Shown piece after piece: positions 12,826 to 63,413 of a stretch of 64,000 nt of DNA. The notes under the pieces were generated by a model. That model searched no databases, had not been told where the DNA came from, and worked only from the letters and a program-made list of their open reading frames with translations. The position numbers were made by a program, and so were the translations under genes. The DNA is taken from NCBI RefSeq assembly GCF_003018255.1, contig NZ_CP027440.1; one strand, 5' to 3'. Origin of the DNA: Escherichia coli (lineage in GTDB: Bacteria; Pseudomonadota; Gammaproteobacteria; Enterobacterales; Enterobacteriaceae). Positions within the stretch are counted from its first letter, which is position 1; every line of letters begins with the position of its first letter.

Positions 12826-12942
12826 AAAAAAAAGCGGATCCTGGAGATCCGCAAAAGTTCACGTTGGCTTTAGTTATTCGAGTTGAGAAACTCTCGAAAC
12901 GGGCAGTGACTTCAAGGGTTAAAAGAGGTGCCGCTCCGTTTC
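12826..12942 (-). ncRNA. oxyS: OxyS small regulatory RNA
   Basis: Reverse complement reads GAAACGGAGCGGCACCTCTTTTAACCCTTGAAGTCACTGCCCGTTTCGAGAGTTTCTCAACTCGAATAACTAAAGCCAACGTGAACTTTTGCGGATCTCCAGGATCCGCTTTTTTTT, the known OxyS sequence with its terminator hairpin; divergent from oxyR. Confidence 0.93.
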
Positions 12943-17819: not shown

Positions 17820-17944
17820 GATGTATCCTGAAAAATTAAAGTACGCGGCGATTGTAGGGATTGCTCATCAGATGTCCAGATCTTGATGAATTCCTATTTG
17901 TGAGCTACGTCTGGACAGTAACTTGTTACAACCTGTAGCATCCA

Positions 17945-18187
17945 CTTGCCGGTCCTGTGAGTTAATAGGGAATCCAGTGCGAATCTGGAGCTGACGCGCA
18001 GCGGTAAGGAAAGGTGCGATGATTGCGTTATGCGGACACTGCCATCCGGTGGGAAGTCATCATCTCTTAGTATCTTAGATACCCCTCCAAGCCCGAAGAC
18101 CTGCCGGCTAACGTCGCATCTGGTTCTCATCATCGCGTAATATTGATGAAACCTGCGGCATCCTTCTTCTATTGTGGATGCTTTACA
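17945..18187 (+). promoter_or_regulatory. btuB leader containing the adenosylcobalamin (B12) riboswitch
   Basis: Leader GCCGGTCCTGTGAGTTAATAGGGAATCCAGTGCGAATCTGGAGCTGACGCGCAGCGGTAAGGAAAGGTGCGATGATTGCGTTATGCGGACACTGCCA... matches the recalled btuB riboswitch; lies directly upstream of btuB. Confidence 0.85.
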
Positions 18188-22948: not shown

Positions 22949-23132
22949 CTTGCTGGTTTGTGAGTGAAAGTCACCTGCCTTAGTATCTCAAAACTCATCT
23001 TCGGGTGATGTTTGAGATATTTGCTCTTTAAAAATCTGGATCAAGCTGAAAATTGAAACACTGAACAACGAAAGTTGTTCGTGAGTCTCTCAAATTTTCG
23101 CAACTCTGAAGTGAAACATCTTCGGGTTGTGA

Positions 23133-29714: not shown

Positions 29715-29790
<76 letters not shown>

Positions 29791-29798
29791 TCAAGTCC

Positions 29799-29883
<85 letters not shown>

Positions 29884-29999
29884 ATTTCGGCCACGCGATG
29901 GCGTAGCCCGAGACGATAAGTTCGCTTACCGGCTCGAATAAAGAGAGCTTCTCTCGATATTCAGTGCAGAATGAAAATCAGGTAGCCGAGTTCCAGGAT

Positions 30000-30074
<75 letters not shown>

Positions 30075-30080
30075 AGATGT

Positions 30081-30156
30081 GCTGATATAGCTCAGTTGGT
30101 AGAGCGCACCCTTGGTAAGGGTGAGGTCGGCAGTTCGAATCTGCCTATCAGCACCA
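30081..30156 (+). tRNA. thrT: tRNA-Thr (GGU)
   Basis: GCTGATATAGCTCAGTTGGTAGAGCGCACCCTTGGTAAGGGTGAGGTCGGCAGTTCGAATCTGCCTATCAGCACCA. Confidence 0.95.
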
Positions 30157-30234: not shown

Positions 30235-31455
<1,221 letters not shown>

Positions 31456-49519: not shown

Positions 49520-49700
49520 GTTAAGGACGTGGCTTGTCAGACGACGGATGAAGCAAGAGACGATCGCCGCAAAGGCGATGCGATAGCAGATTAACTCTTG
49601 TTCCCTTCGCAGGTATTAGCCTGATCAGGTTCCGCGGATCCCGAATAAACGGTCTCAGCCAGTTAAGGCACTCCGACAAGAAATTAGCCCCACAAACGGG
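49520..49700 (-). promoter_or_regulatory. thiC leader with TPP riboswitch (thi-box)
   Basis: Reverse strand of about 49640-49680 contains GGCTGAGACCGTTTATTCGGGATCCGCGGAACCTGATCAGGCTAATACCTGCGAAGGGAAC, i.e. the CUGAGA thi-box core, directly upstream of thiC. Confidence 0.8.
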
Positions 49701-63229: not shown

Positions 63230-63413
63230 CTTGCTGGTTTGTGAGTGAAAGTCACCTGCCTTAGTATCTCAAAACTCATCTTCGGGTGATGTTTGAGATA
63301 TTTGCTCTTTAAAAATCTGGATCAAGCTGAAAATTGAAACACTGAACAACGAAAGTTGTTCGTGAGTCTCTCAAATTTTCGCAACTCTGAAGTGAAACAT
63401 CTTCGGGTTGTGA

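Follow-up and report, generated by a model that had tools for sequence, protein, structure and literature searches.

The region that we analysed, a window of 64,000 nt, corresponds to the oxyS-rrnB-tufB-rpoBC-rrnE region of E. coli and includes the tRNA-tufB operon. On the plus strand, ARAGORN and Rfam place thrU at 29715-29790, tyrU (tRNA-Tyr(GUA), Rfam tRNA score of 53.4 bits) at 29799-29883, glyT (tRNA-Gly(UCC), with an unusual D arm, UCGUAUAAUGGCUAUUAC, by D-arm comparison) at 30000-30074 and thrT at 30081-30156, and tufB starts at 30272, with about 560 nt of the operon untranslated upstream of it. From the mapped tRNA coordinates, the thrU-tyrU, tyrU-glyT and glyT-thrT gaps are 8, 116 and 6 nt, which confirms the disproportion that the initial annotation had pointed out, and the sequence quoted there is exactly 29884-29999. 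This spacer is bordered on its 5' side by the CCA end of tyrU, ends in ..GTTCCAGGAT and lies directly 3' of tyrU inside the tRNA-tufB transcript, and the accompanying claim that the transcribed spacer has to be excised holds as well. The operon is among the most heavily transcribed units of E. coli, and the existence of the tyrU-glyT spacer was already apparent from its sequencing around 1980-81.

The same annotation described the spacer as having neither an ORF nor a tRNA fold, and this was borne out by ARAGORN, Rfam and an ORF scan. ARAGORN found the four known tRNAs only, none of them in the tyrU-glyT spacer, the Rfam tRNA model had no match in it at E<=10 with truncated matches included, and every ORF of at least 20 aa that touches the spacer runs through the flanking tRNA genes. 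No Rfam family was found in the spacer at E<=10 in searches with 3 kb, with the 116 nt and with the last 37 nt; matches to Hatchet, SAM-SAH and Pseudomon-Rho (E = 3-5) were at chance level and were rejected. We found no sigma-70-like promoter in the spacer and no plus-strand terminator-like site either in the E. coli spacer or in its main-type homologue L081, and an intrinsic terminator or attenuator was rejected as a candidate, there being no G+C-rich hairpin with a U tract on the transcribed strand. The K-12 RefSeq record has no annotated feature within the tyrU-glyT spacer, and the TIER-seq supplements contain no entries for tyrU or glyT.

In E. albertii all 116 nucleotides of the spacer are identical to those of E. 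coli. The coaA-thrU intergenic region is 89.5% identical between the two (38 differences in 361 nt), the flanking genes 94.5% and tufB 97.7%; had the spacer changed at the rate of the adjacent intergenic DNA, it would be expected to show about 12 differences, but none was observed. The spacer is present as a single copy in 5420 of 5426 complete E. coli genomes, and in 5415 of these 5420 it is at least 99% identical. Identity with E. albertii together with near-identity within E. coli makes the spacer as constrained as the adjacent tRNAs, and these comparisons show strong purifying selection on it. Poor conservation, which the initial annotation had named as a result that would tell against its proposal, is clearly contradicted by this identity, by hairpins that covary among homologues and by a 3' block that is invariant across an order.

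The long spacer between tRNA-Tyr and tRNA-Gly (Tyr-Gly spacer) is not peculiar to the present genome. A first scan, anchored on a 35-mer of glyT, with one genome per species and blind to the spacer, gave loci from which the Tyr-Gly spacers were extracted with ARAGORN. Pseudomonas and its relatives have spacers of 9-26 nt, Vibrio of about 35 nt, Pseudoalteromonas of 44-45 nt and Orbaceae of 51-55 nt, and in every named member of the Enterobacterales the length is 87-192 nt (Escherichia albertii, two Enterobacter species, Superficieibacter, Pseudescherichia, two Pantoea, Rosenbergiella, two Photorhabdus, Xenorhabdus and Moellerella). Metagenomes were then scanned with the conserved motif of the spacer and the start of glyT as the anchor, after which the collection comprised 98 distinct spacers of 51-458 nt; since the metagenome set is conditioned on the motif, it was used only for the part upstream of it. 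Because MAFFT misaligns the third of the hairpins described below (P1, P2 and P3), 18 spacers of the type that is commonest outside Escherichia were used to build a covariance model, R1, with 7 bp in P1, 10 bp in P2 and 13 bp in P3. R1 matched the E. coli spacer at full length (29883-29999, 33.6 bits, E about 5e-7), and it also matches Rosenbergiella and the last ~120 nt of the long Pantoea-type spacers; no match was obtained at the tyrT locus, in Morganellaceae spacers, in Orbaceae or in Vibrio.

The layout found among the homologues consists of three hairpins at fixed positions, of differing sequence, followed by a near-constant tail. In E. coli, a 5' single-stranded linker, AUUUC (29884..29888; consensus nUUUc in an alignment of 75 sequences), precedes P1, GGCCACGC-GAUG-GCGUAGCC (29889..29908), and P2, CGAG-A-CGAUAAG-UUCG-CUUACCG-G-CUCG (29909..29936), both predicted from a MAFFT alignment and supported by covariation. 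They are followed by P3, GAAUA-AA-GAGAG-CUU-CUCUC-GA-UAUUC (29936..29962), which is drawn from the centroid fold and from covariation; all of these features lie on the plus strand. The E. coli P1 has 8 positions around a GAUG loop with a C.A mismatch at the fourth, P2 has a UUCG loop and two mismatches, one A.C and one A/G, and P3 has 5+5 bp around a 2x2 internal loop where relatives have 12-14 bp. Compensatory changes occur at all 7 model pairs of P1 (E. coli pair probability 0.3-0.98), at 10 of 10 pairs of P2 (one of them is UA in 33 sequences and CG in 32) and at 13 of 13 pairs of P3, where E. coli pair probabilities are 0.59-0.92 and unconstrained folds of the homologues agree.

Several lines of evidence with different dependence on the model bear on this structure. 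RNAalifold, run on a plain MAFFT alignment of 44 spacers, recovered P1 and P2, with 10 pairs kept through two-sided changes. In the alignment of 75 distinct sequences, which was fitted to the model and therefore favours the structure, standard pairs fill 89.9% of the pair cells and double changes are seen at 30 of 30 pairs; column-preserving shuffles pair in 71.6% of the cells, with none of 500 reaching the observed value, and sliding the 3' partners by 1-3 columns lowers the paired cells to 30-41%. Folded without constraints, the homologues reach a mean z of -4.7 (96% of them below -2), and P1 and P2 reappear in over 90% of these single-sequence folds. With compensatory pairs beyond both the shuffled and the slid controls, the spacer is, as judged from these alignments, a conserved structured RNA element, and selection in P1-P3 targets structure, not sequence. 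The E. coli copy is the thermodynamic outlier of this family: its plus strand has a z of -0.6 to -0.95, its consensus structure reaches -26.4 kcal/mol against an MFE of -31.8, and P2 is weak in the thermodynamic model (probability ~0.13). A helix closing the 5' linker on the tail, which would give a cloverleaf-like four-way junction, was rejected as a conserved feature, its register differing by lineage and its mean duplex z being -0.67; as it occurs in 48 of 74 MFE folds, such a helix may form in some of these spacers. The earlier interpretation of the spacer is partly supported, and it had overlooked both the three hairpins and the invariant motif of the tail.

The strand to which the structure belongs has to be considered with some care, because in E. 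coli the minus strand out-folds the plus strand, giving four neat hairpins at -40.5 kcal/mol (z = -3.4), where the plus strand, at z = -0.6, folds only as well as shuffled sequence. This and a weak minus-strand hairpin with UUUAUU that resembles a terminator could be taken to mean that an antisense RNA is made from the spacer. However, the E. coli asymmetry arises because two A.C mismatches become G.U on the minus strand, and it is not a property of the family, in which 67 of 74 sequences have the lower MFE on the plus strand and there are 189 G.U cells to 57 A.C cells, G.U being possible on the plus strand only. No promoter-like site was found on the minus strand near the spacer, and an antisense product is hardly credible. 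On this comparative evidence, the structure can be assigned to the transcribed strand.

The 3' tail (29963..29999, plus strand) is also the 5' leader of glyT, and by column conservation its consensus is aCAGAaagAAc..GGUAGCCGAGUUnCAGGAU. Within it lies the motif GGUAGCCGAGUU (29981..29992, plus strand), 8 nt before glyT, which occurs a single time in the window and is exact in 14 of 15 Enterobacterales/Orbaceae loci, all 15 of them found without reference to it, the fifteenth having one substitution. GGTAGCCGAGTT stands a few bases before glyT in 15 of the 15, with one C->A change in Rosenbergiella. Just upstream of the motif most lineages carry AGAAAGAACAGG, to which AGAAUGAAAAUCAGG is the E. 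coli counterpart. Too little of the tail varies for it to have a supported structure. Among the other operon segments nothing convincing was found as a pairing partner for the motif (the best of five segments was the tufB coding region, equalled by 8 of 300 shuffles before any correction for the five). The tail as a truncated tRNA was also considered, and no covariance-model match was obtained. Its E. coli sequence at 29966-29992 (GCAGAATGAAAATCAG--GTAGCCGAGTTC) does align with the anticodon and variable arm of tyrU at 29825-29855 (GCAGACTGTAAATCTGCCGTCACAGACTTC; p = 0.003, uncorrected), a resemblance that hints at a decayed copy of tRNA-Tyr; as an account of the tail this was rejected, since the resemblance is confined to E. 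coli, fails correction for 40 tests and has no covariance-model support.

Other Tyr-Gly spacers have features of their own. Those of Morganellaceae type (L060, L062, L095, L120, L147, L165 and L232; 82-106 nt), which lie outside the reach of R1, have only the 3' block (..ACAGCUGAUUAAAGUCAGGUAGCCGAGUUC..) in common with E. coli, and on reading, their upstream part is apparently one long hairpin that replaces P1-P3. The 23-26-nt Tyr-Gly spacers of Pseudomonas (L009, L010, L047 and others) have a small conserved hairpin, GAGCU-GCA-AGCUC, directly before tRNA-Gly.

It had been suggested, by analogy with spacer-derived RNAs of the tyrT operon, that the spacer could be a source of stable or regulatory RNA. 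The RNA of the tyrT operon is RtT, which in E. coli is annotated at the tyrT locus (rttR in the K-12 RefSeq record). The analogy is sound for some relatives, whose Tyr-Gly spacer does contain a genuine RtT, but not for E. coli, whose spacer is not an RtT. At the gathering threshold (45 bits), the RtT model (RF00391) matches inside this spacer in three metagenomic relatives from the Enterobacterales, L137 (4023-4147, plus strand, 101.5 bits), L131 (4894-5009, plus strand, 64.3 bits) and L190 (436-546, minus strand, 46.6 bits), and in the K-12 tyrT locus, used as a control, it found four copies (133-138 bits). A repeat of the tRNA-Tyr 3' end, ..CCTTCCCCCACCACCA, is present as a pseudo end in the long spacers of L126, L137, L169 and L179, likewise seen at the tyrT locus, and truncated RtT-like units that finish in such an end are found in the spacers of L126, L169/L205 and L179, the last with two in tandem in a spacer of 458 nt. 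Because a core module recognised by R1 follows each of them, some lineages must have gained RtT units between tyrU and this module, and the E. coli spacer is the core module without RtT. Like RtT, it is a structured non-coding RNA segment located directly downstream of a tRNA-Tyr gene, within its transcript, and removed from the transcript of a tRNA operon. It differs from RtT in having no match to the model at E<=10 (3 kb, 116 nt and 37 nt searched), no terminal copy of the tRNA-Tyr 3' end and no significant similarity to the tyrT-tyrV spacer, the tyrT trailer or the tyrV trailer (p = 0.59, 0.07 and 0.78, respectively). RtT units moving in and out of the spacer link the tyrT and tyrU loci in evolution.

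We consider it somewhat better than an even chance that the spacer is a cis-acting, structured internal transcribed spacer that organises processing by RNase E and RNase P. Starting from the selection on the spacer, the covarying hairpins of the transcribed strand and the invariant motif, we infer where the transcript is cut, in what order the steps follow and what the fold is for. In the primary thrU-tyrU-glyT-thrT-tufB transcript, P1-P3 would form abutting one another and take up about 75 of the 116 nt, so that a long untranslated spacer would neither pair with the tRNAs on either side and disturb their folding nor lie open. Two short single-stranded stretches containing U would remain, AUUUC after the tyrU CCA and the GGUAGCCGAGUU tail before glyT, and both flanks would be presented to RNase E, with predicted cuts at A|UUU, one nucleotide after the CCA, and at GAG|UU, within GGUAGCCGAGUU and 9 nt before glyT. 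The 3' exonucleases could then finish tyrU, RNase P would remove the remnant of the glyT leader, of about 9 nt, and the excised hairpin-rich piece, of about 105 nt, would be a by-product that may persist for a while. RNase E prefers a U two nucleotides downstream of the cut in single-stranded RNA and cuts near tRNA 3' ends in polycistronic precursors (PMC5222698), and as predicted sites the conserved nUUUc and GAGUU fit this preference for U at +2. A role in processing is also the ordinary expectation for a spacer of this kind, and an RNase E site is the only reading of the invariant tail with outside support. However, such a site needs about 5 nt, and an invariant motif of 12 nt in a conserved block of about 30 nt is therefore left unexplained. 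A long structured spacer is moreover unneeded for processing as such, since the neighbouring spacers of the operon and the Tyr-Gly spacers of Pseudomonas have 6-26 nt, and the status of the E. coli copy as a thermodynamic outlier, together with the low probability of its P2, also counts against the processing reading.

[quoted passage not shown] Twelve invariant nucleotides in such a block resemble a seed or a binding site more than a cleavage site, AGAAAGAACAGG reads from its sequence as four A-R-N triplets of the Hfq distal-face type, covarying hairpins would stabilise a released fragment, RtT, itself a released RNA, occupies the same spacer in relatives, and spacers of tRNA precursors are known as sponges and Hfq binders. 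Yet in E. coli the A-R-N run is degraded (AGAAUGAAAAUCAGG), the motif sits in the glyT leader and is expected to be destroyed by processing, and no partner was identified. The supplementary table derived from RIL-seq enters tyrU and glyT as tRNAs only, with no spacer (IGT) entry, and few tRNA-precursor regions have been reported as Hfq-enriched, the tyrU-glyT spacer not being named among them. The proposal that the spacer gives a stable or regulatory fragment is not supported by our results, and we regard a trans-acting role as unlikely. The bolder form of the idea, that P1-P3 and the GGUAGCCGAGUU block constitute an uncatalogued Enterobacterales RNA that is released from the tRNA-tufB transcript and acts beyond its own processing, we likewise find doubtful; such an RNA might be a decoy, either for a small RNA or for an RNA-binding protein, or else a sensor linking the maturation state of tRNA-Tyr and tRNA-Gly to the output of EF-Tu from tufB. 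The fold could also act while the operon is being transcribed, as a shield against Rho loading or as an antitermination or pause signal for the RNA polymerase that goes on to glyT, thrT and tufB. This would suit the long untranslated stretch ahead of tufB, a spacer that is almost fully base-paired and hairpins selected for structure over sequence, and a report of 1987 is said to describe termination and antitermination in this operon. We nevertheless think it quite unlikely, since no boxA-like sequence was seen on reading through the spacer, plus-strand terminator-like sites are missing from E. coli and its main-type homologue as described above, and the invariant motif would be left unexplained.

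That the spacer has no function and is a leftover of duplications of tRNA-Tyr and RtT units would account for the wide variation of its length and content among lineages (51 to 458 nt), for the RtT or truncated RtT units with pseudo tRNA-Tyr 3' ends inserted in some of them, for the resemblance of the E. coli tail to tyrU and for the weak fold of the E. coli copy. A functionless relic is very improbable, however, in view of the lack of any change in 116 nt against E. albertii where about 12 were expected, compensatory changes at every model pair and a motif that does not vary across Enterobacterales and Orbaceae; other lineages lack the similarity to tRNA-Tyr, which is lost after the 40-test correction and has no Rfam tRNA match behind it. 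An idea that concerns the tail directly is that the conserved leader (GGUAGCC) pairs with the D loop of tRNA-Gly (GGCUAUU) and controls its folding or the timing of RNase P. RRUAGYY-type motifs are indeed present in the Tyr-Gly leaders of lineages with a GGCUAUU D loop, and the variants AAUAGCU, GGUGGCC and GGUAGUU keep Watson-Crick or G.U pairing, but there is no true covariation between leader and D loop because the tRNA side never varies. The duplex of tail and glyT is no better than with shuffled tails (z = -0.69), stand-alone glyT genes of Vibrio have the same D arm without the motif, the motif is absent from Aeromonas and one MAG, and pairing-breaking changes occur in Rosenbergiella and in one Pseudoalteromonas, so that control through the D loop has very little to recommend it.

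A cis-acting role in processing, our preferred reading, can be set beside other transcribed spacers of stable-RNA operons. The external spacer 3'ETS-leuZ and the intergenic regions of metZ-metW-metV are also transcribed spacers of tRNA operons released by RNase E, and they show that by-products of this kind can be functional; they bind Hfq and pair with known small RNAs. The tyrU-glyT spacer is an internal spacer and is absent from the RIL-seq-derived table. The spacers of rRNA operons that contain StyR-44 are similar in being conserved structured segments that are excised during maturation and are catalogued by conservation only, but differ in sequence, operon context and processing enzymes, and unlike them the tyrU-glyT module has no Rfam family. 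The arrangement matches that of the 'direct entry' tRNA precursors of RNase E, with stem-loops beside single-stranded segments and U at +2 (PMC3985628, PMC5222698). The direct entry paper makes no mention of the tRNA-tufB operon, and cleavage in the tyrU-glyT spacer is a prediction. The spacer would work like other excised spacers of stable-RNA operons, outside all the catalogued families tested.

In the searchable literature we found no discussion of the tyrU-glyT spacer, and neither there nor in Rfam or RefSeq did we find its conserved module of three hairpins, its invariant motif or RtT insertions at this site described. The one long spacer of a long-sequenced operon, previously unannotated, is now a candidate RNA element that is well defined and offers clear targets for mutation. 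Should it guide processing, it would serve as a compact model of the way in which RNase E and RNase P are directed by structured spacers within polycistronic tRNA transcripts, and if it acts in trans, an internal spacer would join the short list of regulatory by-products of tRNA maturation.

Other structured RNAs were recognised by Rfam elsewhere in the window. StyR-44 is present in both 16S-23S spacers, at 23026-23125 (rrnB) and 63307-63406 (rrnE), and the remaining matches are OxyS (12833-12942, minus strand), a cobalamin riboswitch (17933-18122), P26 (35257-35318) and a TPP riboswitch (49585-49685, minus strand).

The comparison of glyT (30000-30074 in the window) with L001-L120 also showed that tRNA-Gly(UCC) has two types of D arm in Gammaproteobacteria. 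The canonical arm, UAGUUCAAUGGUAGAAC, is found in Pseudomonas and others, and the unusual one, UCGUAUAAUGGCUAUUAC, whose D stem has 3 bp, in Enterobacterales, Vibrionales, Alteromonadales, Aeromonas and Orbaceae; in many lineages with the unusual arm, the Tyr-Gly leader contains a motif complementary to GGCUAUU. Species of Vibrio/Aliivibrio (L017, L029, L043, L055, L056, L066 and L077) have extra stand-alone copies of tRNA-Gly(UCC), which are accompanied by neither a Tyr gene nor the leader motif. Some 20 nt upstream of these copies lies a conserved TGGCAT(A/T)T element, probably representing promoters of their own, and the copies carry the acceptor-stem variants GCGTGC and GCGTAC.
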